DNA from: Chthoniobacterales bacterium
GTDB taxonomy: Bacteria; Verrucomicrobiota; Verrucomicrobiia; Chthoniobacterales; JAFAMB01
Direction: 5' to 3'
Length of the DNA: 64,000 bases
Assembly (NCBI GenBank): GCA_036401335.1
Contig: DASWVC010000054.1
Location: forward strand, 411 to 64,410
In this document: positions 4,425 to 57,800 of the stretch, piece after piece
Layout of the letters: every line of letters starts with the position of its first letter
Numbering within the stretch: position 1 is the stretch's first letter
Translations under genes and position numbers: made by a program
Notes under the pieces: model-generated
The model's input: the letters and a program-made list of their open reading frames with translations, nothing else
Told to the model about the DNA's origin: nothing
Databases searched by the model: none

Positions 4425-4436
4425 CGGGCTGCGGCC

Positions 4437-4519
4437 CGGTAGGGTGGCGAGTCCCTTCGCCGCCGCGGGGGGTGAGGCGGGCCGCTAAAGGAGGGCGGTT
4501 GGGGACAAGCTCCCTTGCC
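4437..4519 (+). repeat. GGACAAGCTCCC intergenic repeat element, copy 1 (module A plus core)
   Basis: Module A: CGGTAGGGTGGCGAGTCCCTTCGCCGC. Core: GGGCGGTTGGGGACAAGCTCCCTTGCC. Related copies are at 31663, 33880, 50974 and 60350. Lies between the convergent dltB and dltD. Confidence 0.8.
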
Positions 4520-4581
4520 AGGCATGCGCGACCCTAGCCGTTCTTACACCCCGACACCCCGACATGCGCTTCCCGGGCGTT

Positions 4582-9647: not shown

Positions 9648-13757
<4,110 letters not shown>

Positions 13758-13910
13758 ATTACCGCCGGTAAATAGTGAGACTGCTCAGGCTGCCGGTTAC
13801 CGAATCCGGCAGGCCAAGGTAAAAACAATTTGTTAATGGATGCGTCCCTGCGGCCGCCAGCGCGTCCCGGCTTCTCACGTCCGGAACACGCCGACCAGCA
13901 ATGCATTGAA

Positions 13911-17738: not shown

Positions 17739-18128
17739 ACAAGATCGTGTTCTTTGTCCGAACCGGGACTTAAACGCTGCCCAACCGAAAGCCACCCTTG
17801 AGATGGAAACCGGGACGGCAAAGGGGAACAGAAATAGCCCCAGACAGGAGCATTGTCAAATGCACCTCGTGCGTGGAGCCAACAGCCGTGACTGTGAAAT
17901 TAAACTGCCGAGCGATATCTCGAGTTCCCCCGCGGTTAACGGAGCCCCAATTGTACGTTGAAATGCTCGGGTTGCAAGGGATTTTTACGGGGGAACAGCT
18001 GCCGCGTAAAAGGGCCGCCCGTCCCTTGCCGGCCTGCCCGGCGGCGAAGGGACTCCCCGACCTGCGGCAATACCTCCTTCCGCTTCGTTTGCCTTGGCTC
18101 GGAAGCTTCAATTACGACAGTTTTGATC

Positions 18129-25548: not shown

Positions 25549-25621
25549 CAGGTCAGGAGGGACTCGAACCCCCAACCGGCGGTTTTGGAGACCGCTGCTC
25601 TACCAATTGAGCTACTGACCT
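25549..25621 (-). tRNA. tRNA-Trp (anticodon CCA)
   Basis: Hand-folded 73-nt cloverleaf: acceptor AGGTCAG/CTGACCT, anticodon arm GCGGT-CTCCAAA-ACCGC, T-loop TTCGAGT. CCA end not encoded. Confidence 0.9.
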
Positions 25622-25714: not shown

Positions 25715-26899
<1,185 letters not shown>

Positions 26900-26962: not shown

Positions 26963-27038
<76 letters not shown>

Positions 27039-29531: not shown

Positions 29532-29606
29532 CGGGCTGTGGCTCAGCTTGGCTAGAGCGCCACGTTCGGGTCGTGGAGGCCGTGGGTTCGAATCCCACCA
29601 GCCCGA
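29532..29606 (+). tRNA. tRNA-Pro (anticodon CGG)
   Basis: Hand-folded 75-nt cloverleaf: acceptor CGGGCTG/CAGCCCG, anticodon arm CCACG-TTCGGGT-CGTGG, T-loop TTCGAAT. Confidence 0.9.
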
Positions 29607-42853: not shown

Positions 42854-44617
42854 GTGATGCCGTTTGGTCAAGGAGCCGCCCGGGTCGGCTTTAAACGCAC
42901 GGAGCGGGGTTTGAGGCGACCAGGTATAGTTTCCAAATTACTGGCCTTGTTCGGGCGCGACGGCAACGACCGTGGTTCCGAGGATGGCAGGGTTGTCCCA
43001 GGCGATGTCTCGCTGCCCTGGAAAGTGTTGCTTTACCTGCCGTTTGATTCGGAGGTGCCATCCTGGATCAGCAGCGTTGCCAAACGCGGGTTCCAGGTCG
43101 AAGTCCGCACAACACCGGATTTACCATCGGTTGCGCACCGGCCGGACGCGGTGCTGATAGACACTTCGGACCGGGTGGAGGAGGCGGTTCGATACGTGAA
43201 GCGCGCACAGGTCCACTTTGGAGGCCAAGCCGTTTTCACGGCGGTATTGGTGCACTCGCCGGACTTCATGCGAACACAAGGAAAACGGCTTCTGGACGCG
43301 GGAGCATCGCGGGTGTTCCAACCAACCAACGCCCGCGACGCACAGATCCTGACCGGACTGAAAGTCGCGTTCACTCCAGGTTACCTGGACCCATCCCTAC
43401 AATTTCCACCCTTACAATCCTTAAGACCGTTGCCTCCCGCCGGCGAAGCGGGAGCTTCTCACAACCACATTCTACTTGTGGTGGACGACCCGGTGATCGC
43501 CAACCTATTGACCAGGATCCTGGAGGAAGGTGAATTTACCACGACCGTGATCCCGGACGTGGAAGCGGCGATGAGGTGGTTGGAACACGCCCATCCGGCG
43601 GCGGTGTTGCTTGATTCGGTTCTGCCGGGCCTGGCGGGCCTTGAAGCGGTAAAACGGTTCCATGCTCCGCGTGCTACGGGCACCGCTTTGCCGGTCGTGG
43701 TTTTCGTTGGCACCCTGGCGCCGGTCTCCGAGAACCAACTGCTTGAAGCCGGCGCGGCCCAAGTGTACCGGAAAGCCGACGTCGATGCGCGCAAGCTGTT
43801 GAACACGTTTGCAGCCCTTCTTCGTCGGGCCCCCTCGGATGAACATGGCGTGGGGTTCGACGATAAGGCTGCCGCATTTTCTAAACCAGATTCGGTTTTG
43901 TTCGGCGAAATCCGGGAGGTGCTCATGCAGCAAGCGCCAGGGATCTGTGGCGAACTGCTCCGCTTGCTGGGTCAGGTGGCCCACGAGGAAAACCCGGAAA
44001 CCGAAAAACTGAAGCAACTGCACCGGAAGCTGCACTCGTTGGCCGGGCACGCAGGGCTGGCCGGTTTATCTCGAGTGAGCACCCTGGCCGGAGCTTTGGC
44101 GTCATTGGTCGACGAACTCCTCGGGCGCAACGCATCGTTCACCCACTCGATCCGACGCACCCTGGCTCAAGGCATCGAGCTTACCACTGAGCTTTTCGGA
44201 AGGGCGGACGAATTCATGCCCGCAACGATTCCCGTGTTGGCGGTGGATGACGAAGAGGTCAGCCGGCGGGTGTTGAGTCACGCCCTCCAGAAAGTGGACC
44301 TTCGCCCCACCGTTCTTTCGTCTTCGGAGGAGGCGTTGCCGGAAGTCCGGGCACGCCGGTATGACCTGATTTTTCTGGACGTCGAAATGCCAGGCTTAAG
44401 CGGCCTGGAACTGTGCCGCCGGATCCGGGAATTGCCAGCCTACCGCACGACGCCGGTAGTGTTTGTCACGTCAAAGGACTCACTGGCAATCTCTCTGGAA
44501 ACCGCAAGAAGCGGCGGTACGGATTTTATCAAAAAACCGTTTGGCCTTCGGGAACTGGCCGTAAAAGCGCTGATTTACCTGTTGGAACAACCGGGCACGC
44601 CGCCTTCATCGGGCTAA
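42854..44617 (+). CDS. multidomain phosphorelay protein: pseudo-receiver, receiver, Hpt, receiver
   Basis: 587 aa. REC blocks ILLVVDDPVIANLL...LLDSVLPGLAGLE and VLAVDDEEVSRRVL...IFLDVEMPGLSGLELCRRIR...PVVFVTS. Hpt-like HRKLHSLAGHAGLAGL lies between them. Confidence 0.75.
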   Translation: MMPFGQGAARVGFKRTERGLRRPGIVSKLLALFGRDGNDRGSEDGRVVPGDVSLPWKVLLYLPFDSEVPSWISSVAKRGFQVEVRTTPDLPSVAHRPDAVLIDTSDRVEEAVRYVKRAQVHFGGQAVFTAVLVHSPDFMRTQGKRLLDAGASRVFQPTNARDAQILTGLKVAFTPGYLDPSLQFPPLQSLRPLPPAGEAGASHNHILLVVDDPVIANLLTRILEEGEFTTTVIPDVEAAMRWLEHAHPAAVLLDSVLPGLAGLEAVKRFHAPRATGTALPVVVFVGTLAPVSENQLLEAGAAQVYRKADVDARKLLNTFAALLRRAPSDEHGVGFDDKAAAFSKPDSVLFGEIREVLMQQAPGICGELLRLLGQVAHEENPETEKLKQLHRKLHSLAGHAGLAGLSRVSTLAGALASLVDELLGRNASFTHSIRRTLAQGIELTTELFGRADEFMPATIPVLAVDDEEVSRRVLSHALQKVDLRPTVLSSSEEALPEVRARRYDLIFLDVEMPGLSGLELCRRIRELPAYRTTPVVFVTSKDSLAISLETARSGGTDFIKKPFGLRELAVKALIYLLEQPGTPPSSG

Positions 44618-44932
44618 GGCGAGGATCGAGAAGCCGGGAAATCTGGCCACACAATTCCGTTGCCGGGACCCGCATCCTGTCCCATGGTTCAACACCGTCA
44701 GGGACTATGGATCGTAGACACGCGAACCCCGCCAGGGCAGGAATGCAGCAACGGTAGTGTGCTTTGCGTTGCCGTAGTTCTCTGACGGCTTTTTTTGACT
44801 TTTTGACGGGATGTCTGGCAAATGTTGAAACTCACGGTCAGTAGTGCCCCGACGCCTTCCTTCCCGAATCGCTGAACCTTGTTGCAGGGTTCCAACCGAA
44901 GCAGCCAACCTGCGCCGCCGCGAAAAGAAAGG

Positions 44933-45307
44933 ATGAAAATCGTACCACGCAATGTGCATGGCATTCTTGACTACCTGGTAGGCCTGCTGCTGGCGGCGTC
45001 GCCCTGGCTCTTCCATTTTGCCGATGGTGGACCCGCTACGTTCATTCCGGTTGTGCTTGGCCTGGGGGCGCTTCTTTACAGCTTGCTCACGGATTACGAA
45101 CTTGGCGTGGCGCGCATCATCCCCTTTACCACCCACCTGATACTGGATTTCGTGTCCGGCGTTCTGTTGCTCGTCTCGCCCTGGCTGTTTGGCTTTCACG
45201 ACCATGTTTACCTTCCCCACGTCGTGTTCGGTCTGCTGGAGATCGGTGCGGCCGTCATGACTCGTAACGATGCCGTGGCCAACATCAATCGGGTGGTTCG
45301 CCGGTGA
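44933..45307 (+). CDS. SPW-repeat membrane protein
   Basis: ORF 44879-45307; start taken at MKIVPRN. Two internally repeated halves each carry the SPWLF motif (LLLAASPWLFHF, LLLVSPWLFGF). Confidence 0.6.
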   Translation: MKIVPRNVHGILDYLVGLLLAASPWLFHFADGGPATFIPVVLGLGALLYSLLTDYELGVARIIPFTTHLILDFVSGVLLLVSPWLFGFHDHVYLPHVVFGLLEIGAAVMTRNDAVANINRVVRR

Positions 45308-45348
45308 GCACCTTGCAGCGGTGAAAAGCCGTTGGTGAAATCCAAAGG

Positions 45349-47634
45349 TTGAATTTCGCCGGGAGCCTGTTTTCTCTGGAGAGATTGGAAACAGAGCTCA
45401 CGATCCTTAGTGGCCTTACGCCCCGGACGCACGCGGTGACTGGAACGAGCGTCCTTGGGCGGGCAGCGGAAGCCGACGTGGTCTTGCCTCACCCGGAGAT
45501 CTCACGTCGTCATTGCCGGATTCTGCAGGTCGAAACGCGTTGGTACGTCGAAGACCTCGGGAGCCAGCGCGGCACTTTCCTCAATGACGCCCGCATCGGC
45601 GGACGGATGGAGCTTCATCCTGGCGACCGCCTGACCCTGGGCCCCGTCGTCCTGGTTTTCGGTCAGGCTGCCGTGCCTTCCGAGGCCGCCGAAACCGTCA
45701 AGGGGCGGATGCGCGTCAACGGGCAACTGACGAACGTCATTCCACTAGGGAAAACGATTGTTTTGGGTCGAGGAGAAGACGTGGACGTGCAGCTCAATGA
45801 CACAGCCATCTCCCGCCAGCATGCCCGTATCCAGAAAGAGAGCCAAGGGTACCGCATCTTCGACCTGCACAGCAAAGCGGGTTCTTTTGTCAACGGACGA
45901 CGGTTTGATGAACACGCCCTGGTGATCGGTGACCAGGTTCAGATCGGGCCTTTTTGTTTCGTTTTTGACGGACGCCAACTTGCGCGGATTCACCGATTGG
46001 CATCCGGGCGCATCCTTGCCCGTAACCTGGCAAAAACGGGCGGCAGCACGTTGATCCTGAAAAACGTCTCCTTTAGCGCCACGCAGGGCCAATTTATCGG
46101 CATTCTGGGACCAAGCGGCGCCGGCAAAACCACGCTGCTGAACGCCCTTTCAGGCCTTCGCCCGGCCGACACCGGACAGGTCCTGGTAGACGGCACCGAC
46201 TACTACGCCCACCTCGACGACCTGAGGGCTAAGTTCGGTTACGTCCCCCAGGACGACATCGTGCACGCTGAGTTGACGCTGCAACAAGCCTTGTCCTTCG
46301 CCGCTCGCCTCCGGCTTCCCGCCGGCACGCCGCGGCCCGAAATCCGCACCCTGATCTCCCACACGGTCGAGCAACTCGGATTGTCCGAACGTGCCGGGGT
46401 CCGGATCGGGCAGCTTTCCGGCGGGCAGCGCAAACGGGCCAGCGTGGCTGCGGAATTGCTGAACCGGCCGTCCCTGTTGTTTCTCGACGAACCTACCTCC
46501 GGCCTGGATCCGCTGGCCGAATTCCGGCTGATGGAGCTCCTGCGACGGTTGGCAGACACCGGTTGCACCGTCATCTGCACCACGCACGTGATGGAAAACG
46601 TGTACCTGATGGACGAGATCGCCGTCCTGGTCGAAGGCCAGCTCATTTTCCAGGGCGCGCCAGATGCCGCGCGCGCGCACTTCAACGTCAGCCGGCTCAG
46701 CGGGCTCTACGACGCGCTCCAGTCACCTGATTGCACCAGCCTGAGCCCTTTCGAGCCTCCCATCCCTGACGAAACCACGACCGAGACCCGTACCTTCCCC
46801 AAGAAAGAGCGCCGGGCTGCCTCGCTGCCCATTTTGTTGGAGCGGCAAGCAGCCATCTTTCGGGCCGACCCTAAGAATCTTTGGATCGTGCTCGGGCAAC
46901 CCGTTCTGATCGGCGCGTTGGTGGCCTGGGCCAGCCAGTCCGCTCCGCTGGCCCAATTCTTTGCCTACATCACCACCCTCTGGTTCGGTTGCAGCAACTC
47001 GGCCCAGGAAATTGTGCGGGAGCTGCCCATTTACCGGAGGGAACGCCTGGTCGGCCTGGGCCGATGGAGTTACCTGCTGGCGAAGCTGGTGTGGATGGGC
47101 GGCCTGACGTCACTGCAGGTGGCGCTGCTGTTTCTCATCATTACCCTGGTCGGACCGGTCGGGCCTGGACTTTGGCCCCTTCAACTGGCCAGCCTTGTCC
47201 TCCTGGCGTTTGCCGCCACCGGCATCGGCCTCACGGTCTCCACCCTGGCCAGGTCTCCCCTCCAGGCCATGATGCTGGTTCCCATGATCCTCATTCCCCA
47301 GATCCTTTTTTCAGGGTTTACCGTGCCGGTCGGTGACATGGCGTCCACGGTTTTGCCCGTGAGCAAGGTCTTTCCAAGTTTTGCCGCAGAACGCATTGTG
47401 GATTGCAGTTTCATCCTCGGAAAACCGATCACGGGGGATCTGGTCCGCGATTTCTCCACCGCTTACCAAAACCTGAACCAGTGGCAGCGCCAAAGCCGGC
47501 GGCCTCGTCTGATGAATGGCGCCCGTTTCGAAGACACCACGCCGGTGCTTCTGAGCTTCCTTAACCTGAGCCTCTGGACGGCCGGGGGCTTTTTGGCCTC
47601 CTCGGTTTTGCTGGCCCGGAAGGAACGAGGGTGA
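45349..47634 (+). CDS. FHA-FHA-ABC transporter fusion (ATPase plus ABC-2/ABCG-like permease)
   Basis: 761 aa. Two FHA cores (GR..EADVVLPHPEISRRHCRI...GSQRGTFLN and GRGEDVDVQLNDTAISRQHARI...HSKAGSFVNG). Walker A GPSGAGKTT, signature LSGGQRKR, Walker B LLFLDEPTSGLD, then about 6 TM helices. Confidence 0.82.
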   Translation: MNFAGSLFSLERLETELTILSGLTPRTHAVTGTSVLGRAAEADVVLPHPEISRRHCRILQVETRWYVEDLGSQRGTFLNDARIGGRMELHPGDRLTLGPVVLVFGQAAVPSEAAETVKGRMRVNGQLTNVIPLGKTIVLGRGEDVDVQLNDTAISRQHARIQKESQGYRIFDLHSKAGSFVNGRRFDEHALVIGDQVQIGPFCFVFDGRQLARIHRLASGRILARNLAKTGGSTLILKNVSFSATQGQFIGILGPSGAGKTTLLNALSGLRPADTGQVLVDGTDYYAHLDDLRAKFGYVPQDDIVHAELTLQQALSFAARLRLPAGTPRPEIRTLISHTVEQLGLSERAGVRIGQLSGGQRKRASVAAELLNRPSLLFLDEPTSGLDPLAEFRLMELLRRLADTGCTVICTTHVMENVYLMDEIAVLVEGQLIFQGAPDAARAHFNVSRLSGLYDALQSPDCTSLSPFEPPIPDETTTETRTFPKKERRAASLPILLERQAAIFRADPKNLWIVLGQPVLIGALVAWASQSAPLAQFFAYITTLWFGCSNSAQEIVRELPIYRRERLVGLGRWSYLLAKLVWMGGLTSLQVALLFLIITLVGPVGPGLWPLQLASLVLLAFAATGIGLTVSTLARSPLQAMMLVPMILIPQILFSGFTVPVGDMASTVLPVSKVFPSFAAERIVDCSFILGKPITGDLVRDFSTAYQNLNQWQRQSRRPRLMNGARFEDTTPVLLSFLNLSLWTAGGFLASSVLLARKERG

Positions 47635-47697: not shown

Positions 47698-48669
47698 TTA
47701 CAAGTTTCCCATGCGGGAATCGCTTTCCCGCCCCTCGGACCGCTCGCGCGGTGGAGATTCCAACCCATTCACCCCTAACACCCGTACCCCCTGCTGTTTG
47801 CCTTTAAGCTGGAATTGGCCGAGATCCACGAGGTCGCGCCCTGGCGGCAGGACCGTTCCAAAATCCTGGGACAGCACCAGGTTGCGGTTCAATTCTTTCA
47901 TCACACCTTCCAACCGGAACGCCGTGTTCACGGCATCCCCGATGATCGTCGCGTCACGCATCGCGACCTGGCCGATGTTGCCACTGGTCACGCGCCCAAA
48001 ATGGAGGGCGATGCCCACCCGAAACGACTGTCCGGTTTCCGGCCAGCTCCGCTTGGCAGCCAACTCAAGCAACGTCGCAGCGACGTCCAGGCAGGTGGCA
48101 CACTCGGTGCCTTGTTGATCGCGTGCAGGCCAGTAGGCAAGCACGGCGTCGCCGATGTATTTGTCGATGATGCCGCCGGCCGATTGGACTGCATTGCCAA
48201 TGTCGCGAAACCAATTCCCGAGCACTAACGCGAGCTGACGCTCTTCCAGCCTTTCCGCCATGGCGCTGAAGCCGCGGATGTCGCAAACGAGGATGGCCAC
48301 CGACAAGGAGGCATGCTGCCCCTCCAAGCTCAGGGCGGCCAACGTGATGTCCGTAGCCTCACCGGGTTCTTCGTCCAGGGTTTGCTCGAAAATCAGTTCG
48401 TAATTGGCAATGCGCACCCGCGCACCGGACTGGAGCACAACCGGCATCACCACCCGCTGATCATTAACGTAAGTCCCATTGCGACTGCCCAGGTCCATGA
48501 TCTGATATTCGTACCCATTGTGACAGCGGACGATCGCATGCTGCCGGGATACGTGGGTACCTGGCAACGACACCGTATTATCGAGGGTACGCCCGATGGT
48601 CGCAGTGTTGCTTACAACCTGTTCGAACAACGGCTCACCTGGCGAGTAGACGCGAAACCTTGCGGGCAT
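47698..48669 (-). CDS. FHA-domain class III adenylate/guanylate cyclase
   Basis: ORF 47698-48795; start moved to MPARFRVY (48669) because the longer version would overlap the riboswitch. FHA core IGRTLDNTVSLPGTHVSRQHAIV...GSRNGTYVN. Cyclase blocks VAILVCDIRGFSAM and IGDAVLAYW. Confidence 0.78.
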   Translation of the reverse strand: MPARFRVYSPGEPLFEQVVSNTATIGRTLDNTVSLPGTHVSRQHAIVRCHNGYEYQIMDLGSRNGTYVNDQRVVMPVVLQSGARVRIANYELIFEQTLDEEPGEATDITLAALSLEGQHASLSVAILVCDIRGFSAMAERLEERQLALVLGNWFRDIGNAVQSAGGIIDKYIGDAVLAYWPARDQQGTECATCLDVAATLLELAAKRSWPETGQSFRVGIALHFGRVTSGNIGQVAMRDATIIGDAVNTAFRLEGVMKELNRNLVLSQDFGTVLPPGRDLVDLGQFQLKGKQQGVRVLGVNGLESPPRERSEGRESDSRMGNL

Positions 48670-48786
48670 GGCAGGCCACAAAAATGCCAGCTTACCACCC
48701 TGTTTGCCAGTCTCTTTAGAGTAAGGCGGATCGCTGAGGTCAATTTCTTGTTGACGCTCCCCCTGGGTGCCCGTAATTTCGGCCCA

Positions 48787-48900
48787 CTCCATCAAGAGTA
48801 GCAGAGGGACTGGCCCGTTGAAGCTACGGCAACCGGTTCGGCGAAAGCCGAACGCCCAGGTGCCAAATCCAGCCTTGAGAAATCAAGGGCAGATGGTGAG
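48787..48900 (+). promoter_or_regulatory. SAM-I (S-box) riboswitch
   Basis: Hallmark strings GAGGGACTGGCCC (48804-48816), GGCAACC (48828-48834) and GGTGCCAAATCCAGC (48859-48873). P3 hairpin GGTTCGGC-GAAA-GCCGAAC (48835-48853). P4 hairpin CCTTGA-GAAA-TCAAGG (48873-48888). P1 CTCCATC (48787-48793) pairs with GATGGTGAG (48892-48900). Lies directly upstream of the thrC-like gene. Confidence 0.78.
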
Positions 48901-48948
48901 CAATGCGTGTCTATCCGCGGCTCTTGGTGGGTACCCTACACCCGCCCT

Positions 48949-50208
48949 ATGGATAAACGCCCCAACTTTTCGCACTTGCAATGTCGTGAGTGCGGCCGTC
49001 GGTACCCCAAAGAAGCCATTCACGTTTGCGAGTTTGACTTTGGACCGCTCGAGGCAGCCTACGACTACGAGGCCATCAAGGCCGTTGTCTCCCGGGATCT
49101 CATCGCCCAACGGCCCCGATCCATGTGGCGGTACCGCGAGCTTCTTCCGATCGAAGGGCAGCCGTCTGTTGGGTTGCAAACCGGATGCACTCCGTTGGTG
49201 CGGGCCAAGCGCTTGGCTGAAAGGTTGGGAGTCAGCGAACTTTATATAAAGAATGATGCCGTAAACCATCCCACCTTGTCCTTCAAGGACCGGGTGGTAT
49301 CTGTGGCGCTCACCCGTGCCAAGGAACTCGGACTCGACACGGTCGCCTGTGCGTCAACCGGCAACCTGGCGAATTCGGTGGCCGCCAATGCAGCCGCAGC
49401 CGGTCTCCGCAGCTTTGTCCTGATCCCGGCCGACCTGGAGCCGAGCAAAGTGGTGAACTCACTCATTTACGGCACCAACGTCGTGGGCGTTCGGGGCTCC
49501 TACGATCAGGTCAACCGGTTGTGCGCTGAGGTTGCCGGTAAATTTGGGTGGGGGTTTGTGAACGTAAACCTTCGCCCTTACTATGCCGAAGGGTCGAAAA
49601 CCTTGGGGTTCGAGGTCGTAGAACAACTCGGTTGGAAGTTGCCGCAACATACCGTGGTGTGCATGGCCAGCGGTTCATTGCTGACCAAGGTTCACAAAGC
49701 CTATAAAGAATTCGTGCAGGTGGGCTTGGTTGACGACACGCCGACCTGCATCTACGGCGCTCAGGCCAGCGGCTGTTCACCCATCACCACGGCCATCAAA
49801 AACAAAAGCGAGGTTGTCCGGCCCGTGCCAAACCCCCGGACAATCGCCAAATCGTTGTCCATTGGGACCCCCGCAGATGGGTACTACGCCATCCGCACGA
49901 TGGAGGAGACCGGTGGGACCGGCGAAGACGCCTCGGATCCCGAAATCATCGAAGGCATCAAATTGCTCGCTGAAACGGAGGGCATTTTTGCTGAAACGGC
50001 GGGCGGTGTGACCGTCGCCTGTGCGAAAAAATTGATCGAGGCAGGTAAAATTCCGCGTGACGAAAGCATCGTCCTTTGCATCACCGGCTATGGCCTTAAA
50101 ACGCAGGAGGCCATCGTCGAACACGTGGGACGCCCCCACTACATCCAGCCGCAACTGCGCGAGTTCGAAGCATTGATCTCTGAACAATCCACTCTTTCCC
50201 CTAAATAA
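48949..50208 (+). CDS. threonine synthase homologue (PLP enzyme; candidate sulfur-carrier-dependent homocysteine synthase)
   Basis: ORF from GTG 48907; ATG 48949 preferred. N-terminal Zn-ribbon-like CRECG...VCEF. PLP-lysine motif HPTLSFKDR. Glycine-rich GNLANS loop. Confidence 0.8.
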   Translation: MDKRPNFSHLQCRECGRRYPKEAIHVCEFDFGPLEAAYDYEAIKAVVSRDLIAQRPRSMWRYRELLPIEGQPSVGLQTGCTPLVRAKRLAERLGVSELYIKNDAVNHPTLSFKDRVVSVALTRAKELGLDTVACASTGNLANSVAANAAAAGLRSFVLIPADLEPSKVVNSLIYGTNVVGVRGSYDQVNRLCAEVAGKFGWGFVNVNLRPYYAEGSKTLGFEVVEQLGWKLPQHTVVCMASGSLLTKVHKAYKEFVQVGLVDDTPTCIYGAQASGCSPITTAIKNKSEVVRPVPNPRTIAKSLSIGTPADGYYAIRTMEETGGTGEDASDPEIIEGIKLLAETEGIFAETAGGVTVACAKKLIEAGKIPRDESIVLCITGYGLKTQEAIVEHVGRPHYIQPQLREFEALISEQSTLSPK

Positions 50209-50216
50209 TACCTGTC

Positions 50217-50492
50217 ATGCCTGTCCCTGTTCGTATCCCTACCCCGCTCCGCAAGTTGACCGACAACCAGGAGGTCGTCCAAGTCAACGGAGCTAACATT
50301 CGCGAAGTCATCAACAGCCTCGAATCCGCGTTTCCCGGGTTGAAAGAACGCATCTGCGACGATAAAAACCAGATCCGCCGCTTTGTGAATGTGTTCGTCA
50401 ACGAAGAAGACATCCGCTTCCTGCAGGATTCCGAGACCCCGGTGAAAAGCGGAGACGAGATTAGCATTGTCCCGGCCATTGCGGGCGGGTAA
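50217..50492 (+). CDS. MoaD/ThiS-family ubiquitin-like sulfur carrier protein
   Basis: 91 aa, ending in ...SIVPAIAGG (C-terminal Gly-Gly). Starts 8 nt after the thrC-like stop. Confidence 0.75.
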   Translation: MPVPVRIPTPLRKLTDNQEVVQVNGANIREVINSLESAFPGLKERICDDKNQIRRFVNVFVNEEDIRFLQDSETPVKSGDEISIVPAIAGG

Positions 50493-50973
50493 ATCCGTCC
50501 CAGCCCCTTTTTTCTGTTCTGGTTAAGCTAGTGCTGGAAACGCGGCCGGGGCCCCCTTACCGTGTTCTTGAGCGGAGCACAAGTCCAGAGACGGACCTGG
50601 TCCCCGGGTCTGGCCCTCTCCACTCCGGGGCTGCCGTGGGGCCGAACACAACCTCATGGTTTACTCCTGATCCCCCACCTTTTCCCGTGAGGGTTCCTGG
50701 TCCGCGGTTTCCGGCCGCGAGGTGCCGCTCTCCGGTTGGTCATCCACGGCGCCGTCCTTGCCTCCATCCGGTTCGTCTCTCAAAGTGCTCATGGTTAATG
50801 ATCGCGGCGCGTTTTCGCAACGCCTTGCCCCAGAAGCCTTTTTTCGGTTTTTAGGCCGCTACCATAAACCCGTCCCGGAGGCACCCTGTTGCAGGTAACA
50901 TAAGGAAACCATGATGCGGCCAAAGCGTCGGTTGTCCCCAACCGACTACGGGATTGAGGCGGACCACGATCCC

Positions 50974-51139: not shown

Positions 51140-51676
51140 TTAGCGATCGGTCCGATGGCCACGGCGCCGGAGGTGAAATCCGAACAACGAAAGCCCACCT
51201 ACCAGGACGAGGGCCAACACCGATGGTTCGGGAACAGCAGCAACCGTCAACCTGGCATTCTCATGGTGGAAACTGCTGTAGACGCCACTCTGCTGAAAGA
51301 ACCCGTAGATGTCGTAAGTACCCGGCAGGAATTGCCCTTGGGTGCCACTGGCAGTCTCACCAATGAAAGGTTTGTCGAAGGCTGCAATCGCGGTTGACCA
51401 ACCCGTGTTCGCCAAAAACACGTTCGTCCCAAACCGTGCATCCAACGACACCGGTTGTTGCACGACCTGCGCATTGATTGAAAGCGTCAGATTTTGCACC
51501 GCAATGACCTGACTTGCCGCGCCGGGATCGATGGAAAACGTTGGGACTTGGAACGACAGCGAAAACGCCTTCCCATTGTCGAGTGGACCTTGCAGCGAGA
51601 CGGATTCCAACTCGGCCCGCGTTATTCCGGGGGTGAGCGCGACGGCGAAAAGGACAAGGCTAAAAAAGCGATGCAT
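51140..51676 (-). CDS. PEP-CTERM sorting-domain secreted protein
   Basis: ORF 51140-51736; start taken at MHRFFSLVLFAVAL (signal peptide). C-terminal VPEPSVLALVLVGGLSLFGFHLRRR is a PEP-CTERM anchor. Confidence 0.7.
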   Translation of the reverse strand: MHRFFSLVLFAVALTPGITRAELESVSLQGPLDNGKAFSLSFQVPTFSIDPGAASQVIAVQNLTLSINAQVVQQPVSLDARFGTNVFLANTGWSTAIAAFDKPFIGETASGTQGQFLPGTYDIYGFFQQSGVYSSFHHENARLTVAAVPEPSVLALVLVGGLSLFGFHLRRRGHRTDR

Positions 51677-51914
51677 GGCTACTTGAATCGCTCGCCCACG
51701 GAGAAAAGCTCGTGGAAGATGGCGGTTCCAGGTCAAACATTTTTGTGTGTTGTTACGGTAGGTTTAAGTAGGTTCAGCCGGCACAGTTTATAAAATTTGT
51801 CTCTTAACATCGACTGGCCGAAAAGGTGCTTCTAAATACGCCTCTCAATGGGCGTTATTGCGGCACAAGGGCCGTTCGCGACCAGCGACAAAACAAAGGC
51901 GTCGTCCCAGACCG

Positions 51915-53504
51915 ATGAGGAATGAGCAAACGGCAGAAATCGGAAACGGGCTGAGAACCCACACGGTCTTTACACACGTGCTGGTGGAAAAAGCGGAACT
52001 TTACCGCATGATCCTCGAGGGCTTTGTTCGGGCACGCGAGCAGTTCATTACCCACCTACGACCAGCGGAGGTTGCGCGTGAGATCGGGTGCAACGACGAG
52101 GAAGCGGAGAACGCCTTGCGCAAACTCCAGCAATGGGGAAACGTTGAAGCCACCCAGGATTCGGCTGAAGCCGTTTCAATCGACGAATTTTACCGGAGCC
52201 GGTTCCTTTACGCGCTTTCGGCGGCGGGCGAAGCGGCTGAGCGGGCGCTGGCGATTTTCGAAGAAACGCTGCATCGGCCCGGAGAGTTGCAAACGGCAGC
52301 ATTGCGCGACATCACCGAATTCCTTGAAGGCATCCGGGTCCTGTTGGCCGGCGCGGAACCTGACGTGCCCAAATTGCACACGCAATTGTTGGGTTTGACC
52401 GAGCGCTTCCGGAACCTGACGAACCGGGCGCAGGCTTTCATGCGAGATCTCCAGAGCACGGTGCAGCTTCACGGGATGAGCGTGGAACAGTTCCTCGGGT
52501 ACAAACAGCTGCTGATCGACTACCTGGAACGGTTCCTACGAGACCTCGTGCTCGCCACCAATGAGATTTCCCAGAAGATCCTGCTTCTCGAGCAAGCGGG
52601 CATCCGTGATCAATTCGGGCCGGTGGCACGGCGTTCGTTGGCCGATGCCCTGACCCGTACGCGGGAGATGGAAGAGCGGGAAATCGCAAGCTGGGAAGGG
52701 CGCTGGCACGGGTTGCGGCGTTGGTTCCTGGGCGAACCGGGCGTCCTTTCGCAGTCCGAGATTCTCCGAGCACGCGCCCGGGAGGCAATCCCTGCCCTGC
52801 TTTTTACGTTGCAGAACATCAACGATCAGCGCGTCACCCGGAGCGACCGCTTTACCGACTGGCAGACGCTTGCGGTCTGGTTTGCGGAGACCGCCACCGA
52901 TGAAGAGGCGCACCGTCTCTGGCGGGTGGCGTTCGGGCTGGCACCGGCGAGGCACCTCCAGATCAATCAGGAGACACTTGACCTCTGGGACCAGGCGGGT
53001 GACGGACCGCGGACGCCATGGCTGGCGGCGGAGCCCCTCCGGATCAGCCCGCGCCTGCGCGTGAACGGACGTTTGGTGGTCCGAAGCCAGGCCACGGCGG
53101 TCGTAGATCGGGGCAGAGAGAAGGCGGAGCTCGCTCGTCTGGCTGCCGACGAAGCGGTGCAGATTGCCCGCGCACAGCGGGAACTGGCGCTTAACCGACC
53201 GCTGCGCCTGACGGATTTCGGCAGATTGGACACTCCGGCGTTTTACCTTTTGCTTGACCTGCTGGGAGAGGCGCTGGCGATGCGGACCGACCCTCGCGAA
53301 CCCGTGGAAGCTGCCTCAATGGATGGCGCGCTGCTCGTTCGTCTCGGCCCGGAGGACGACCCAGTGCGTTTGGCCGAGATCGTTACCACCACCGGCGTGC
53401 TGCGCGGGCCCGATTGCGAAGTGACAATTTCGTATGCTCACCTTACCCCGGCCGCCAAGATGGTGGCCGGGGAATCAAGGTGGCCGGAGGCGCCGGGGCT
53501 ATAA
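51915..53504 (+). CDS. jetA: JetA-like subunit (TIGR02677/DUF2397-like) of an SMC-type defence operon
   Basis: ORF 51858-53504; start taken at MRNEQ (51915). Helical, with no catalytic motif. N-terminal FTHVLVEKAELYRMILEGF resembles, from memory, the DUF2397 N-terminus. First gene of the four-gene operon. Confidence 0.6.
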   Translation: MRNEQTAEIGNGLRTHTVFTHVLVEKAELYRMILEGFVRAREQFITHLRPAEVAREIGCNDEEAENALRKLQQWGNVEATQDSAEAVSIDEFYRSRFLYALSAAGEAAERALAIFEETLHRPGELQTAALRDITEFLEGIRVLLAGAEPDVPKLHTQLLGLTERFRNLTNRAQAFMRDLQSTVQLHGMSVEQFLGYKQLLIDYLERFLRDLVLATNEISQKILLLEQAGIRDQFGPVARRSLADALTRTREMEEREIASWEGRWHGLRRWFLGEPGVLSQSEILRARAREAIPALLFTLQNINDQRVTRSDRFTDWQTLAVWFAETATDEEAHRLWRVAFGLAPARHLQINQETLDLWDQAGDGPRTPWLAAEPLRISPRLRVNGRLVVRSQATAVVDRGREKAELARLAADEAVQIARAQRELALNRPLRLTDFGRLDTPAFYLLLDLLGEALAMRTDPREPVEAASMDGALLVRLGPEDDPVRLAEIVTTTGVLRGPDCEVTISYAHLTPAAKMVAGESRWPEAPGL

Positions 53505-53505
53505 C

Positions 53506-54810
53506 GTGTTAAGCGACCCAGATCGTATGGCCGACCGGAGGTCCCTTCCGGGTGCAAGCACGGGGCGGCCGACGCGCCAACGGCTGGCTGGGCTGGGATC
53601 AACCATTAACGCGCAAGAGCGGGACGAGCGTCAACGCGCCGTCCGCGCACTTCTGAGCGAGCCGCTGCTTTCCCCGGGAGGTTCAGAGGCGTTTACCCTT
53701 GTACAGAAGCACCGGGACTTTCTGCGTCTCTGGTTTGCCCACCACGCAGGCTGGCAGCTCGTTCTGGACGCAGAATCCGCTCGACTGATCAAACGACCCG
53801 CCCGGCTTGACGACGCGACGCGCCCCTGCCGCGAGCCCAACTCCGGGGCTGCGCTGAGCAGGCGCGCCTACGTGATTCTCTGCCTTGCCTTGGCGTCACT
53901 GGTGCGCGCCGATCGTCAGACGACTTTGATCCGGCTGCGAGACTTGATCCTTGGCCTCGTCCGAACCGAACCGCGGTTGGCCGCGGCAGGCCTTAGAATT
54001 GAACTCGACCACCAGGAATCGCGCCGGGATTTTGTGCATGCCATTCGCCTGCTCCTGGCGTGGCGGGTGTTGAAGCGTGTGCAGGGCGAGGAAGAGCATT
54101 TTATCAAAGATGCGGAAACTGACGCCCTCTACAACGTCCACCGGCCCACGCTTGCGCGGTTGCTCGCGGCGAGCCGGCCGCCTTCGCTCGTGAAGGCGCG
54201 AGAATTTCCGGAGCGACTTCGTGCGTTGGCCGAAGACGACCTTGCGGCCAACGCCGAGGAATCGGATCATCGGCACCTGCGGGTCCGTTTGTTCCGCCAG
54301 CTGCTTGACGACCCGGTGTTGTATTACGATGAATTGACCCAGGAAGAGCGGCAATACCTGGACCGGCAGCGCGGCTTTATCCTCCCGGAGATTGAAGCGG
54401 CGACTGGCCTCGTCCGCGAGGTGCGTGCTGAAGGGATCGCCATGGCCGATCCAAGCGGAAAGCTCAGTGACTATGGCCTTCCCGAGGAGGGAACGGACGG
54501 GCACCTTACCCTGTTGCTCGCCACCTTTCTGGCAGCCCGGCTCCGTGAATCGCCGGGCGCAAGCGTCACCTTTGCCGCCTTGGTTGCACGAACGCAGCAG
54601 TTCATCGTCACCCATCACCGCCATTGGCGCAAAGACGTGCGTGATTCCGGTCAGGATCGCGCGCTGACACGCACCGTCGTTGATCGGCTTTCTGCGCTGG
54701 GCCTGGCCCGCTGCGAAGGCGACCGGATCGTTCCCCTTCCGGCCATCGGACGCTACGGACTGCGGGAAGAGAGCGAGCCCGCATGGCCGGACGAAGGAGG
54801 GACGGAGTGA
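53506..54810 (+). CDS. jetB: JetB-like subunit (TIGR02678/DUF2398-like)
   Basis: ORF 53434-54810. Likely start is GTG 53506 (2 nt after the jetA stop) or ATG 53527. LLSEPLLSP...FTLVQKHRDFLRLWFAHHAGWQLVLDAESARLIKRP resembles, from memory, the DUF2398 pattern. No enzymatic motifs. Confidence 0.6.
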   Translation: MLSDPDRMADRRSLPGASTGRPTRQRLAGLGSTINAQERDERQRAVRALLSEPLLSPGGSEAFTLVQKHRDFLRLWFAHHAGWQLVLDAESARLIKRPARLDDATRPCREPNSGAALSRRAYVILCLALASLVRADRQTTLIRLRDLILGLVRTEPRLAAAGLRIELDHQESRRDFVHAIRLLLAWRVLKRVQGEEEHFIKDAETDALYNVHRPTLARLLAASRPPSLVKAREFPERLRALAEDDLAANAEESDHRHLRVRLFRQLLDDPVLYYDELTQEERQYLDRQRGFILPEIEAATGLVREVRAEGIAMADPSGKLSDYGLPEEGTDGHLTLLLATFLAARLRESPGASVTFAALVARTQQFIVTHHRHWRKDVRDSGQDRALTRTVVDRLSALGLARCEGDRIVPLPAIGRYGLREESEPAWPDEGGTE

Positions 54811-57800
54811 GCGACGAACTCTTTGGCGAGCCGTCCGGGGACGGAGCTTTCCCCCCGCGCATTCTCCCACGACCCACCCGGGAACGCTGGCAACCTTTGC
54901 GCAGCGGCCTTCTGAACATTTTCAAGTACGACGAAGAAGAATTCCTTTTTGAGGACGGAAGGCTGCTTCTGCGCGGAAACAATGGTGCCGGAAAATCGCG
55001 CGTGCTGGCGTTGCAGCTTCCCTTCCTGCTCGACGGTGAAATGGCTCCGCACCGGGTCGAGCCGGATGCAGACCCGGCGAAGCGGATGGAATGGAACCTT
55101 CTCATGAACAAACATGAGAACCGCCTTGGCTACACTTGGATCGAATTCGGCCGGCGGGATGCGGACGGTGTTGAGCGGTACCTTACGCTTGGTTGCGGCA
55201 TGCACGCCCGCAAAGGAACCGGCATCCCGCCGAATGGCCGCTGGTTCTTTATTACACCTCGGCGCGTGGGCGCAACGCTCCAACTGCTTTCGGGAAACCG
55301 TGTGCCGCTCAACCGGGAACGGCTCGAGGCAGTGCTGGGGCCAGGGGCGATTTACCGCAGCGCCCGTGAATACCGCGCCGCGGTGGATGCCGCGCTTTTC
55401 GGCCTGGGTGCGCGGTATGAGCCGCTGCTTGAACTGCTGATCCAGCTTCGCAAGCCGCAGATCATGCGGGATTTCAAAGCGGACGACCTGTCACGGCTGT
55501 TGAGTGAAGCCATGCCGCCGCTCTCGACCCGGCTGGTCGAGAACGTCTCGGTGTCGTTCCGCAGTCTGGATACCGATCGCCAGCAGCTTACCGAACTGAC
55601 CGATACGCGCCGCAGCGTGGAAACGTTTCTCAAGAGCTACCAGCATTACGTGCAGGTCGCGGTGCGCCGCCGGGCGGCTGAGGTCCGTGCAACGCACAGC
55701 CGGTTTGAAAGCGTGCAGCGGGAGCTCAAGCGGCTGCGGGACCAGCGTGATCAGATCGCCGCCGACCTGGTTGCTGCAGAGACGGACCAAAGACAGATCG
55801 AGGAGGCGCTGGCGGCGACCCGCGAAGCGGAAAGGACCCTGCTCGCCAGCCCGGAGATGAAAAATGCGGAAGCCTTGCGGCACGCCGCCGAAGCCAAGGA
55901 GGACCGGGTCAAACGCGCCACGGCGGCCGAAGAGTCTGCGCGCGAAGCGCGAAATGCGCACGGCCGGATGCGTCACGAAAGGGAGGAAGCCGAAGGGGTG
56001 GTGATGCGCGAGCGCCAGGCGGCTGATGTCCTCCATGCCGCCTTGACGGATGCTTGGAGATCGGCGGCGCTGGCGGACAACGCGCTGCCGCTGCGCGAAC
56101 CCGCGGAAAAAAATGCACGAACAGATTTTGACCGCACCGTTGCCGAACGCCGGCGGGTCATCCTGATTTTGCGTGAAAACAACTCGGTGGTGGCGCGAAA
56201 CGTTGACTTGCGGAAGCAGGAAGAGATCCGTTTCGAACAGCGGCGCGACGACGTGGCCCGGTGCGAGGAGGCGCTGGCCAATGCCCGAACTGAATGCGGG
56301 CAGGCTTTGGAAGACGCCCTGACCGGCATTCACCAATGGGAAGCGGCGTTGCAACTCTTGCCCATGACGAAAGGAGTGGATTGGCGTGTGCTCCTGGAAC
56401 GGTGGCTCGATGCGACGGGCCGGCCCTCTCCCTTGACCGAATACGTCGAGGCAGCGCATCGCTCGGCCGCGCAGACCGTGTTCGATGCGCGCAGCCGTCA
56501 AAAGACTGCCTTGGCGGAGCAAGCGACCGCGCGAAGGGAAGCGGCGGACGAACTTGACGGCCTCCGCGCCGGCCGTCAACCGGAGCCGCCGACCCCTCAC
56601 ACACGGATGGCTGACGCGCGCGCCGGCCGGCCGGGAGCTCCCTTTTGGAAACTATGCGGCTTTCGTGACCATGTCGCACCGGAGGACCGCGCCGGCTTTG
56701 AGGCAGCAGCCGAAGCGGCAGGGTTGCTCGACGCCTGGTTGACCCCGGACGGCGCGCTGATAAATGCTGGAACGCTCGACTGCTATTTCGTGGCTGCTGA
56801 CGGCCGGCGGGACGCGGGCCTGAACGCGGTGCTGTATGCGGAAGGCGAGATGACCGACGTCGTGGAGCGCGTCCTCGGCTGCATCGGCACCCATGAAAAT
56901 GAAGGCAAGAGCTGGCTTTCCCGTGATGGCCGCTGGCAGCACGGGCTGTTGCGGGGTGCCTGGCGTAAGCCGAAAGCGGAGTACCTCGGCCACGGCGCCC
57001 GTGAAGACGCCCGGCGCCAGCGAATGCAAGAACTCGAATCCGTCCTCGCGGCCATCGATCGTGTGGTCGCGCAGCACCAGCGCGAACTCGAGGACATTGC
57101 CCAGCGGGCAAAGGGGCTCGAGGCGGAACGCGCCGGGGTGCCCAGCCTCGCGCCGTTGCAGCGCGCCGCGCACACCCTGGAAGCTGCCGAACATTCCAGC
57201 GCGGAGGCGCGGGCACGGCTCGACGAGGTTGACCGGCTGCTGGCAACGGCCCGCGAAGGGGAGCGCGGCGCCTGCCAAAGGCGGGATCGAGATGCCGCCG
57301 ATCTTGGCCTGGCGGCGTGGAAAGAACCGGAAGCAGTCAGTCGCTTGGAAACGTTGCTTATCGAAGTCCGCCTGAAGGCGGCTGCGCTCTGGCCGGCCTG
57401 GGACGCTTTGCTTGCTGCAAATGCGGCGTTGTTAAAGGCGGGGATACGCGAACGGGAAGCCCAGCATGCGGCAGAGGCCGTCGCCGGCCGCTACGAGGAA
57501 GCACGGCAACTCGCGGCAGCCGCAACCGCCCACTTTGCCACTCTCCACGCTGCCATCGGGGCAACCGCCGATCAGGTATTGAGCCGGCTCGGCAGCGTGC
57601 GGCGCGAGCTGACCCACCTGGTCGAAGCCGAAAAAACAGGGCACCACCACATTGGAAAACTCAATGTTACCCGGGCCGTGGCCGTGAATGACGGAGAACG
57701 CGCTGAATCCGATCGCGTGGTCCGTGAATTGGAACGCGGCCATGCCATCGCCCGGCTGCAGCTCTTTGCGGAAAAGCGGCTCCTTGAGGAAACGGGCGTG

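Follow-up and report, generated by a model that had tools for sequence, protein, structure and literature searches.

A SAM-I riboswitch with a predicted strand-exchange platform ahead of a metM-like operon in Chthoniobacterales

A SAM-sensing leader in front of a gene publicly labelled 'threonine synthase' raises two questions: what the enzyme makes, and how the leader can control it when the stretch between aptamer and start codon holds neither a T-run terminator nor a Shine-Dalgarno (SD) sequence. The locus lies in a 64,000-nt stretch of a contig from a soil-dwelling Chthoniobacterales bacterium (the window; all positions given here are window positions, and all features lie on the forward strand). 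An earlier note on this DNA had read the leader as a SAM-I riboswitch without a terminator, had placed the gene in methionine or sulfur metabolism, and had cast the 3' strand of helix P1 as the SD of an alternative GTG start at 48907; the first three parts are supported, and the last is not. Taken together, a promoter, a SAM-I aptamer, a strand-exchange, SAM-OFF translational switch and a homocysteine operon of the MetM/MetO type probably offer the best explanation of the locus.

The SAM-I aptamer and its promoter

When the entire window is scanned with cmscan against Rfam 15, the SAM-I model RF00162 matches at 48786-48899 with 81.0 bits (E = 1.7e-17), well over its gathering score of 44.4 bits, and the alignment is not truncated, spanning model positions 1-108 of 108. 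This is the check that the earlier note had proposed for its SAM-I call, and the call holds clearly; the Rfam bounds are shifted by one base from the 48787-48900 given there. The conserved strings that prompted the call are all present: GAGGGACTGGCCC at 48804-48816, GGCAACC at 48828-48834 and GGTGCCAAATCCAGC at 48859-48873. P1 is formed by CUCCAUC (48787-93) with GAUGGUG (48892-98), with one U-U mismatch (48788/48897), and P2 by 48798-802 with 48823-27 and 48806-08 with 48814-16. P3 (48828-42 with 48847-64) and P4 (48873-78 with 48883-88) are both capped by GAAA loops, at 48843-46 and 48879-82, respectively. The pseudoknot between the P2 loop and J3/4 joins CUGG (48810-13) to CCAG (48869-72). 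A candidate kink-turn in P2 (GA / UGAAG) can be recognised at the sequence level only: GCAGAGGG and CCCGUUGAAGC fall at the consensus K-turn positions of the covariance-model alignment.

The four-way junction P1-P4 and the pseudoknot covary among 31 related aptamers. Across this alignment 95.8% of cells in the aptamer helices are paired and 15 pairs show compensatory changes, a level of pairing that none of 500 shuffles matches and that slid controls miss by a wide distance (36-46%); in the RNAalifold structure, compensatory changes are found in 14 of 25 pairs. The pseudoknot is paired in 96.8% of cells and has one compensating position (CAGG/CCUG in two leaders, L024 and L001). By covariance model and covariation the element is confirmed as a genuine, ordinary SAM-I riboswitch, which presumably binds SAM.

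Transcription of the leader can be traced to a conserved promoter at 48751-48779, with a -35 box TTGACG (48751-56), a 17-nt spacer and a -10 box TAATTT (48774-79). The TTGAC of the -35 box is invariant, and a TAnnnT -10 box stands at a fixed distance to P1, in each of the close group's 25 distinct leaders; the consensus scanner missed this promoter because its -10 box is too weak. Transcription probably starts at ∼48786, 1-2 nt upstream of P1. This sigma-70-type promoter would produce a transcript that carries the SAM-I aptamer, a 49-nt linker and a two-gene operon.

Start codon, linker and a predicted strand exchange

The downstream gene starts at ATG 48949, which yields the conserved N-terminus MDKRP.FSHL.CRECG. 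The earlier note had proposed another mechanism, in which translation begins at GTG 48907 and SAM-stabilised P1 hides GGUGAG (48895-48900), the sole SD-like sequence. Both strings are indeed in the letters: the GTG is in frame 6 nt past GGTGAG, the reading frame is open from 48907, and P1 does contain 48892-48898. The N-terminal extension that would begin at this GTG is nonetheless not conserved. In three relatives (L002, L004 and L006) stop codons shut the frame upstream of the ATG homologous to 48949, and therefore only that ATG is usable there. L004 and L009 lack the GTG altogether, and ∼4 of 10 relatives (about a third) have it in frame, roughly the chance rate; in the alignment of relatives' leaders, 48907-48948 is conserved at the level of an RNA motif rather than of codons. 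The public annotation of a 100%-identical protein (P0001, 419 aa) also begins at ATG 48949. The proposed SD fares no better, as SDs are absent from the well-defined genes of the window: none was found at the confident starts of tuf, tsf, rpsB, rpoB, nusG and metO. A GTG start with P1 as its SD switch is thus very improbable.

Upstream of ATG 48949 there is no GGAG, GAGG or AGGA. An SD-sequestering riboswitch has its SD at -5 to -12 and pairs it when ligand is bound; this leader has no such SD, and occlusion close to the AUG is predicted instead. Two further candidates for a role in initiation were rejected. A 17-codon upstream reading frame (ATG 48903 to TAA 48954-56), which overlaps the start of the gene, has an ATG that is absent from relatives. 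A long-range SD function for GGUGGG fails on position and structure: the motif is 17-30 nt away from the AUG, and both predicted states keep it base-paired.

The expression platform is the aptamer-to-start linker itself (48900-48948), and comparable linkers of ∼50-70 nt separate aptamer and ATG across the close group. The conserved switching element sits in these 49 nt, a stretch that the earlier note left unanalysed. The element, GCUCUUGGUGGG (48920-48931), is complementary over 12 bp to UCCAUCAAGAGU (48788-48799), which comprises the P1 5' strand, J1/2 and the first nucleotide of P2. Its core, CTCTTG.TGG, is invariant in an alignment of 10 leaders and present in 25 distinct leaders. In folding models, 48788-48799 can pair with the P1 3' strand, giving the aptamer state, or with the linker element, giving an anti-aptamer state.

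The linker element is conserved and covaries with the 5' strand of the aptamer. In all 25 leaders the anti-aptamer duplex scores z ∼ -6, with 0-1 of 300 shuffles equally good. In more distant Verrucomicrobiota both partners change together: AUCGAGAG is found with CUCUCGAU in L095 and L096, UCUUAUC with GAUAAGA in L011, and AGAGCA with UGCUCU in L098. Across the alignment 89.3% of cells in the anti-aptamer helix are paired, against 40-51% in slid controls, with compensatory changes in 5 of 14 pairs; the register of this alignment is that of the best complement, which biases the pair counts toward pairing.

Energetically, the two predicted states are finely balanced. Their mean energies are near-isoenergetic (-66.6 vs -69.5 kcal/mol), and the unconstrained minimum free energy (MFE) structure contains the anti-aptamer helix in 6 of 10 leaders. 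In the window leader, whose aptamer state has an energy of -64.5, that state is preferred by the nearest-neighbour model, with no ligand present, by ∼3 kcal/mol; the ensemble gives the anti-aptamer helix a probability of only ∼3% there, though most relatives favour it. In all 25 leaders the start region is predicted to be more accessible in the anti-aptamer state, and in the window leader its unpaired fraction is 0.83 in that state vs 0.36.

How the start region might be closed is suggested by a predicted OFF-state hairpin (48926-48946), in which GGUGGGU (48926-32) pairs with ACCCGCC (48940-46) and which ends 2 nt short of the AUG. The window leader lengthens this hairpin with UAUCCG (48912-17) paired to UGGAUA (48950-55), so that the UG of the start codon is covered, and with 48907-10 paired to 48957-60. 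The hairpin is part of the MFE structure of the window leader and has P ∼0.9 in the ensemble. Nearly all of the 25 relatives are predicted to form a hairpin on the GGUGGG arm, with varying 3' arms (UUCCC, CCUACC, CCCAUC, UCCACC and UUCCUGCC). Its support from shuffling is moderate (mean z -1.6; for the window leader, 40 of 300 shuffles do as well), and the sequestering hairpin is plausible rather than established.

These elements suggest a strand-exchange, SAM-OFF translational switch, of which the OFF direction, the sequestering hairpin and the toehold order of events are read from folding models. When SAM is abundant, the bound aptamer would lock P1 and leave the linker element GCUCUUGGUGGG free; its GGUGGGU would then pair with ACCCGCC upstream of the AUG, while the flanks pair over the UG of the AUG. 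With the SD-less initiation region folded away, translation would therefore be repressed. At low SAM, the element would nucleate on single-stranded J1/2 (CAAGAG) and invade P1 by taking its 5' strand. The resulting 12-bp long-range helix, 48788-99 with 48920-31, would destroy the SAM pocket and keep structure out of the region around the AUG (-17 to +11), where 30S subunits could then load. A point against such a switch is that a helix closing ∼130 nt is kinetically demanding.

Control could instead be mainly transcriptional, through SAM-induced termination by Rho or a non-canonical terminator, or through Rho polarity after translational repression as the main output. Homolog leaders in delta-proteobacteria and Thermodesulfobacteriota have T-runs and canonical GGAGG SDs, which makes theirs terminator-type platforms; in Verrucomicrobiales, L022 and L111 carry a terminator-like hairpin, GGAAGGGG-TTTTTT. 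The linker is C-rich, and dual translational and Rho control has been reported for other riboswitches (e.g. review PMC10907184). In the window, however, the scanner found no intrinsic terminator in 48400-49200, as the earlier note had surmised, and there is none between aptamer and ATG; 24 of 25 close-group leaders have no T5 run. A classical S-box attenuator combines a terminator with an antiterminator built on the P1 3' strand; no such combination was found in this leader. The folding models pair the C-rich stretch when SAM is bound and expose it when SAM is absent, the reverse of what direct loading of Rho at high SAM would need. A mainly transcriptional output is unlikely here, and the translational strand exchange remains the preferred reading.

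The operon and the product of its enzyme

The first gene (48949-50208) encodes a 419-aa, pyridoxal phosphate (PLP)-dependent enzyme of the ThrC family (PF00291, 1.1e-66), hereafter the metM-like protein. It matches TIGR00260 (thrC) with 281.6 bits, over the curated cutoff of 167.1, and every named protein among its best 120 matches is labelled threonine synthase. It is ∼40% identical to solved threonine synthases and retains the PLP-lysine motif SFKDR. Threonine synthases in the PDB align to residues 55-405 only; the N-terminal ∼54 aa, a zinc-ribbon-like CxxC...HxC extension, form a domain absent from solved ThrCs. Cyanobacterial homologs are 61-62% identical to the metM-like protein, and the Microcystis aeruginosa member of that group has 51.6% identity to MetM (PMC12172450).

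The second, metO-like gene (50217-50492) begins 8 nt past the metM stop and encodes a 91-aa sulfur carrier of the ThiS/MoaD family (PF02597, 8.7e-17) ending in ...PAIAGG. Its nearest solved relatives are 4n6e_B and 3dwg_C (E = 1e-18 to 1e-20), both cfp10A of Mycobacterium tuberculosis, which we take to be CysO; the match to CysO in PDB 3dwg has E = 4.7e-18 over the full length. The two genes form a co-transcribed, two-gene operon. At its end, GGGCGGG (50483-89) can pair with CCCAGCCC (50499-506, one bulged A) ahead of a T6 run (50508-13). This hairpin (50483-50513; -11.5 kcal/mol), which the scanner missed because its loop is 9 nt, is not significant alone (z = -0.95), and an operon-end terminator is plausible, not proven. 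Among the ∼40 ORFs of the 64-kb window, no MoeZ, Mec, thrB, hom or further met gene was found. Partners that activate the carrier (a MoeZ-type E1/sulfurtransferase, a Mec protease) need not adjoin the operon.

In MetM/MetO of Streptomyces albulus, O-phosphohomoserine is converted to homocysteine, according to the works that cite Hasebe et al. 2024 (Appl Environ Microbiol 90:e01247-24), namely PMC12172450 and a GapMind 2026 preprint. By analogy, the metM-like and metO-like products would combine O-phospho-L-homoserine with the carrier thiocarboxylate to give homocysteine, so that the operon most likely makes this methionine precursor. The suspicion that the 'threonine synthase' serves methionine or sulfur metabolism is thus supported by the co-transcribed, CysO-like carrier and the match to a published system; it was right, yet already in print. 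Beyond the Hasebe citation, nothing was found in the older literature on S-box elements at thrC-like genes.

Could the enzyme be a bona fide threonine synthase, with the riboswitch balancing the threonine and methionine branches at O-phosphohomoserine and the ThiS-like neighbour functionally unrelated? The TIGR00260 score, the identity to solved threonine synthases and the intact SFKDR motif are what such an enzyme would show, and the M. aeruginosa homolog has threonine synthase activity in vitro, together with deaminase activity, and does not clearly act as MetM (PMC12172450). The best-matching equivalog, PRK08197, nevertheless scores below its cutoff (291 vs 303 bits). The neighbour also speaks against it: a GG-terminated 91-aa carrier lies directly downstream (4-40 nt) across Verrucomicrobiota and in many cyanobacteria, and its closest similarity is to CysO, which hands a thiocarboxylate to a PLP enzyme. 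On a true ThrC, a SAM-OFF switch would reduce threonine production at high SAM and so run counter to the known logic of this branch point; the threonine synthase of plants is activated by SAM. The S. albulus homolog, as the citing works report, is a homocysteine synthase (PMC12172450; GapMind 2026 preprint). We give the threonine synthase reading little credence, and homocysteine synthesis is retained as the probable function.

The association of riboswitch and enzyme extends well beyond the window. By Rfam scans, on which all presence and absence counts rest (a core regex missed several Rfam-confirmed aptamers), SAM-I lies directly upstream of the metM homolog at 20/20, 13/20 and 8/20 loci in three scanned sets. 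It precedes the homolog at 25 of 26 Verrucomicrobiota loci and at many delta-proteobacterial loci, there with terminators; none was found at the scanned cyanobacterial loci. A metO-like gene follows immediately in nearly all Verrucomicrobiota relatives and at 69 of 122 loci overall.

Hundreds of 'threonine synthase' genes in Verrucomicrobiota, delta-proteobacteria and Planctomycetota probably encode homocysteine synthases that belong to the MetM/MetO thiocarboxylate pathway. Their misannotation distorts methionine and threonine reconstructions for uncultured soil bacteria, and an upstream SAM-I match offers a cheap, independent flag for re-annotation. One aptamer class also appears to be read out differently by phylum: terminators and SDs in delta-proteobacteria, a predicted SD-less structural switch in Chthoniobacterales, where the leader makes a compact test case of toehold-type strand exchange at the P1 5' strand. 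Neither the re-annotation nor the diversity of platforms upsets current understanding. More tentatively, and at somewhat less than even odds, Chthoniobacterales may have an SD-independent platform new to S-box leaders, in which a J1/2 toehold, capture of the P1 5' strand and a ∼130-nt helix dismantle the SAM pocket and open up the surroundings of the AUG; as a separate matter, soil Verrucomicrobiota at large may rely mainly on MetM/MetO for their homocysteine.

Comparison with known systems

With the Bacillus subtilis yitJ and metI S-box leaders (RF00162), this leader shares the four-way junction P1-P4, the P2-loop/J3/4 pseudoknot, the conserved core strings and a location in the 5' leader of an operon for the methionine pathway. 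Classical S-box leaders switch between a terminator and an antiterminator, with the P1 3' strand as the switching sequence. Here, by contrast, there is no terminator, and the conserved competitor pairs with the P1 5' strand and J1/2.

On the protein side, CysM has a cysteine-synthase fold and converts O-phosphoserine to cysteine. The M. tuberculosis CysM-CysO pair (PDB 3dwg) would resemble the present operon in its PLP enzyme, its sulfur donated as a thiocarboxylate on a ThiS/MoaD-fold carrier and its O-phospho amino acid substrate. The enzyme here belongs instead to the ThrC family, and a SAM riboswitch in front of it suggests that the pathway leads to homocysteine and methionine.

A published counterpart is metM-metO of S. 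albulus. As described in the works citing it (PMC12172450; GapMind 2026 preprint), it has a PLP enzyme homologous to ThrC together with a ThiS-like carrier in the same gene order, a SAM riboswitch upstream of metM, and an enzyme that is likewise, and frequently, misannotated as threonine synthase. The present operon differs in belonging to Verrucomicrobiota (Chthoniobacterales), not Actinomycetota, and in having no MoeZ or Mec gene within the 64-kb window. The present carrier is encoded with GG as its last residues, and C-terminal processing may therefore be unneeded.

For the mode of control, a parallel is SAM-I_Xcc of Xanthomonas campestris, a SAM-I aptamer on a met operon that acts chiefly on translation (PMC7270179), as is predicted here. 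In SAM-I_Xcc a true SD is sequestered by an anti-SD, and the platform binds uncharged tRNA-fMet (PMC7270179). The Chthoniobacterales leader, with no SD and no sign of tRNA sensing, would instead build its switching helix on the P1 5' strand and J1/2.

Identity of the leader and its operon

The leader at 48786-48899 (+) is a genuine SAM-I riboswitch of the usual type, as the earlier note had proposed. An Rfam search of the window with all 4227 families matched it to RF00162 (SAM-I, S-box leader) at 81.0 bits, well above the gathering score of 44.4 (E-value 1.7e-17; model positions 1-108 of 108 covered), and the conserved strings, the two GAAA-capped helices and the P1 pairing given in that note were all found in place. 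The window's P1 has a single U-U mismatch (48788/48897). In an alignment of 31 Rfam-confirmed aptamers from related loci, RNAalifold recovered P1-P4, with compensatory changes in 14 of 25 pairs. A hand-specified structure, consisting of these helices, the inner P1 pairs and a pseudoknot between the P2 loop and J3/4, gave 95.8% standard pairs and double changes in 15 pairs across the same aptamers; none of 500 column shuffles equalled its score, and controls with slid partners reached 36-46%. The pseudoknot pairs CUGG 48810-13 with CCAG 48869-72 (+) in the window, and appears in a compensating version (CAGG/CCUG) in the related loci L001 and L024. Every testable defining feature of SAM-I is present, and SAM binding is predicted from the sequence.

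An invariant TTGAC -35 and a TAnnnT -10 lie at a constant distance from P1 in 25/25 related leaders. In the window they occupy 48751-56 and 48774-79 (+), which places the probable transcription start ∼1-2 nt upstream of P1. The gene 3' of the riboswitch (metM-like, 48949-50208, +) encodes a ThrC-family PLP enzyme (PF00291, 1.1e-66; TIGR00260, 281.6 bits), with PRK08197 as its best equivalog (291 bits, slightly below the cutoff of 303). Over residues 55-405 the enzyme shares ∼40% identity with threonine synthases of solved structure, and it carries an additional ∼54-aa N-terminal segment, CxxC...HxC. The DNA comes from a Chthoniobacterales (Verrucomicrobiota) MAG, and a public protein of 419 aa that is 100% identical (P0001) is named ‘threonine synthase’. 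Starting 8 nt past the enzyme stop codon, the metO-like gene (50217-50492, +) encodes a 91-aa ThiS/MoaD-family sulfur carrier with the C-terminus ...PAIAGG. Among solved structures it is closest to 4n6e_B and 3dwg_C, M. tuberculosis cfp10A. This protein is CysO, which donates sulfur as a thiocarboxylate to the PLP enzyme CysM. A terminator-like GC-rich hairpin followed by T6 (50483-50513) overlaps the carrier stop codon; as an operon terminator it is suggestive only (z = -0.95). So arranged, promoter, riboswitch, enzyme, carrier and terminator can be read as one unit. No further methionine or sulfur-relay genes were found in the 64 kb window.

The SAM sensor had been taken to imply a role in methionine or sulfur metabolism for the supposed threonine synthase. 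This agrees with Streptomyces albulus, where, according to two papers that cite Hasebe et al. 2024 (Appl Environ Microbiol 90:e01247-24), namely PMC12172450 and the GapMind 2026 preprint, the threonine-synthase homolog MetM and the sulfur carrier MetO turn O-phospho-L-homoserine into homocysteine. Like the window gene, S. albulus metM has a SAM riboswitch upstream; the Microcystis homolog has none (PMC12172450). The functional reading is thus correct but not new; annotations often mislabel MetM as a threonine synthase (GapMind 2026 preprint). By analogy, the riboswitch most likely controls a MetM/MetO homocysteine-synthesis operon. Beyond Streptomyces the MetM assignment is a putative one, since the Microcystis homolog acted in vitro as a threonine synthase and deaminase and is not clearly a MetM (PMC12172450).

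The closest loci are from Verrucomicrobiota (70-84% identical). In an Rfam scan of the best 60 genome loci, SAM-I lies directly upstream of the homolog in 20/20 of L001-L020, 13/20 of L021-L040 and 8/20 of L041-L060. It is present at 25 of the 26 Verrucomicrobiota loci and at many in Delta-proteobacteria/Thermodesulfobacteriota and Isosphaeraceae/Tautonia, and at 0/10 cyanobacterial loci in the same scan, consistent with the Microcystis literature (PMC12172450). The carrier gene directly follows the enzyme gene in nearly all Verrucomicrobiota and at many cyanobacterial loci.

On the 3' side of the operon are a PEP-CTERM-anchored 198-aa protein (51140-51736, -) and a full type II Wadjet anti-plasmid system (51858-60105, +; PADLOC E-values 1e-120 to 0): JetA2 (51858-53504, DUF2397), JetB2 (53434-54810, DUF2398), JetC2 (54783-58868, MukB-like ATPase) and JetD2 (58720-60105, DUF3323 + DUF2399), all (+). 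On the 5' side, an ORF with FHA and adenylate/guanylate cyclase domains (47698-48795, -) nominally starts at TTG/ATG 48795/48792. Its extension over the aptamer is probably spurious, because this start is the reverse complement of the conserved CCATCAAG (P1/J1-2); the ATG near 48669 is likely where the ORF really begins. Adjoining it is a signalling cluster (42854-47634, +) with one protein that combines two receiver domains with an Hpt domain (42854-44617, +) and another in which two N-terminal FHA domains precede an ABC transporter in a single fusion (45349-47634, +); a bacterial small SRP RNA lies at 44696-44790 (+; Rfam, 61.3 bits). Farther away are a 1837-aa ORF (34345-39858, +) and a typical ribosomal/transcription cluster, in which three Rfam-detected tRNA genes (25549-25621, -; 26966-27038, -; 29532-29606, +) flank tuf (25715-26899), nusG and rplJ, with rpoB/rpoC-sized ORFs at 9648-17795. 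A dlt-like set at 1798-5805, comprising an AMP-binding enzyme (1798-3258), an MBOAT acyltransferase (3255-4424) and, on the opposite strand, a DltD-family protein (4582-5805), resembles a D-alanylation or alginate-O-acetylation-type module, unusual for a Verrucomicrobium.

A linker element complementary to the aptamer

The 49-nt linker between aptamer and ATG (48900-48948) contains an invariant CTCTTG.TGG (48921-48930). Around it, 48920-31 (GCUCUUGGUGGG) is complementary over 12 bp to 48788-99 (UCCAUCAAGAGU), that is, to the 5' strand of P1, J1/2 in its entirety and the first base of P2. In known SAM-I structures SAM contacts P1, J1/2 and P3, so this anti-aptamer helix would be incompatible with the binding pocket.

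The duplex is far more stable than with dinucleotide-shuffled linkers (mean z -6.3; ≤1/300 shuffles equal it), and it is the unconstrained MFE in 6/10 leaders. Folds constrained to P1 and to the anti-aptamer helix are near-isoenergetic across 25 distinct leaders (mean -66.6 vs -69.5 kcal/mol); for the leader in the window, the aptamer state is preferred by ∼3 kcal/mol in the model even when no ligand is present. The helix covaries in more distant Verrucomicrobiota: J1/2 AUCGAGAG is matched by linker CUCUCGAU in L095 and L096, P1-5' UCUUAUC by GAUAAGA in L011, and AGAGCA by UGCUCU in L098. With the register chosen for each sequence as the best complement, 89.3% of positions are paired vs 40-51% in slid registers, and 5/14 pairs show compensatory changes.

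The start codon and its accessibility

The earlier note had P1's 3' strand serve as Shine-Dalgarno sequence of a GTG start at 48907, a proposal contradicted by comparative data. The conserved enzyme N-terminus (M-D/H-x-x-P-F-F-S-H-L-x-C-R-E-C-G) begins at the ATG homologous to 48949, also the public gene call, and in L002, L004 and L006 stop codons close the frame just 5' of it. The GTG counterpart is missing in L004 and L009 and in frame in only ∼4/10 relatives; across 48907-48948 conservation follows a nucleotide motif, not codons. Finally, no GGAG-type Shine-Dalgarno sequence was found at -6 to -18 of the window genes with unambiguous starts (tuf, tsf, rpsB, rpoB, nusG, ymdB and metO). Such highly expressed genes suggest largely Shine-Dalgarno-independent initiation in this Chthoniobacterales genome, which makes Shine-Dalgarno sequestration an unlikely logic in the organism. 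A 17-codon uORF (ATG 48903 to TAA 48954-56, +) overlaps the metM-like start; it is probably fortuitous, as its ATG occurs in 0/9 closest relatives.

With P1 enforced, GGUGGGU 48926-32, the 3' half of the linker element, is predicted to pair with ACCCGCC 48940-46, two bases 5' of the AUG. The window hairpin is lengthened by 48912-17 with 48950-55, covering the UG of the AUG, and 3' arms differ among relatives (UUCCC, CCUACC, CCCAUC, UCCACC, UUCCUGCC). In 25/25 leaders the stretch from -15 to +5 has a higher mean unpaired probability in the anti-aptamer state than in the P1 state (0.63 vs 0.44; window, 0.83 vs 0.36). Shuffling gives this plausible hairpin moderate support (mean z -1.6; window matched by 40/300 shuffles).

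Proposed switching and comparison with other platforms

In the terms of the review PMC10907184, the leader would be a strand-exchange riboswitch. At high SAM, locked P1 would leave the linker element to fold onto the AUG-proximal region, turning translation off. At low SAM, the element would nucleate on single-stranded J1/2 and displace the P1 3' strand, freeing the initiation region and switching translation on.

The pairing of SAM riboswitch and metM/metO is already published for Streptomyces and most likely recurs here in a different phylum; the expression platform, as modelled, is possibly a new variant. In the classical S-box terminator/antiterminator, by contrast, the switching sequence is the P1 3' strand itself, whereas the translational SAM-I_Xcc of Xanthomonas sequesters a real Shine-Dalgarno sequence and also senses tRNA-fMet. 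The leaders of delta-proteobacterial homologs differ again in using T-run terminators and GGAGG Shine-Dalgarno sequences, so the platform is lineage-specific. It varies even within the phylum: the close relative L084 (about 500-701) keeps the CTCTTGGTGGG element with an extra ∼45-nt insert bearing a T7 run before the ATG, and in L022 and L111, from Verrucomicrobiales, the leader contains a terminator-like hairpin, GGAAGGGG-TTTTTT.
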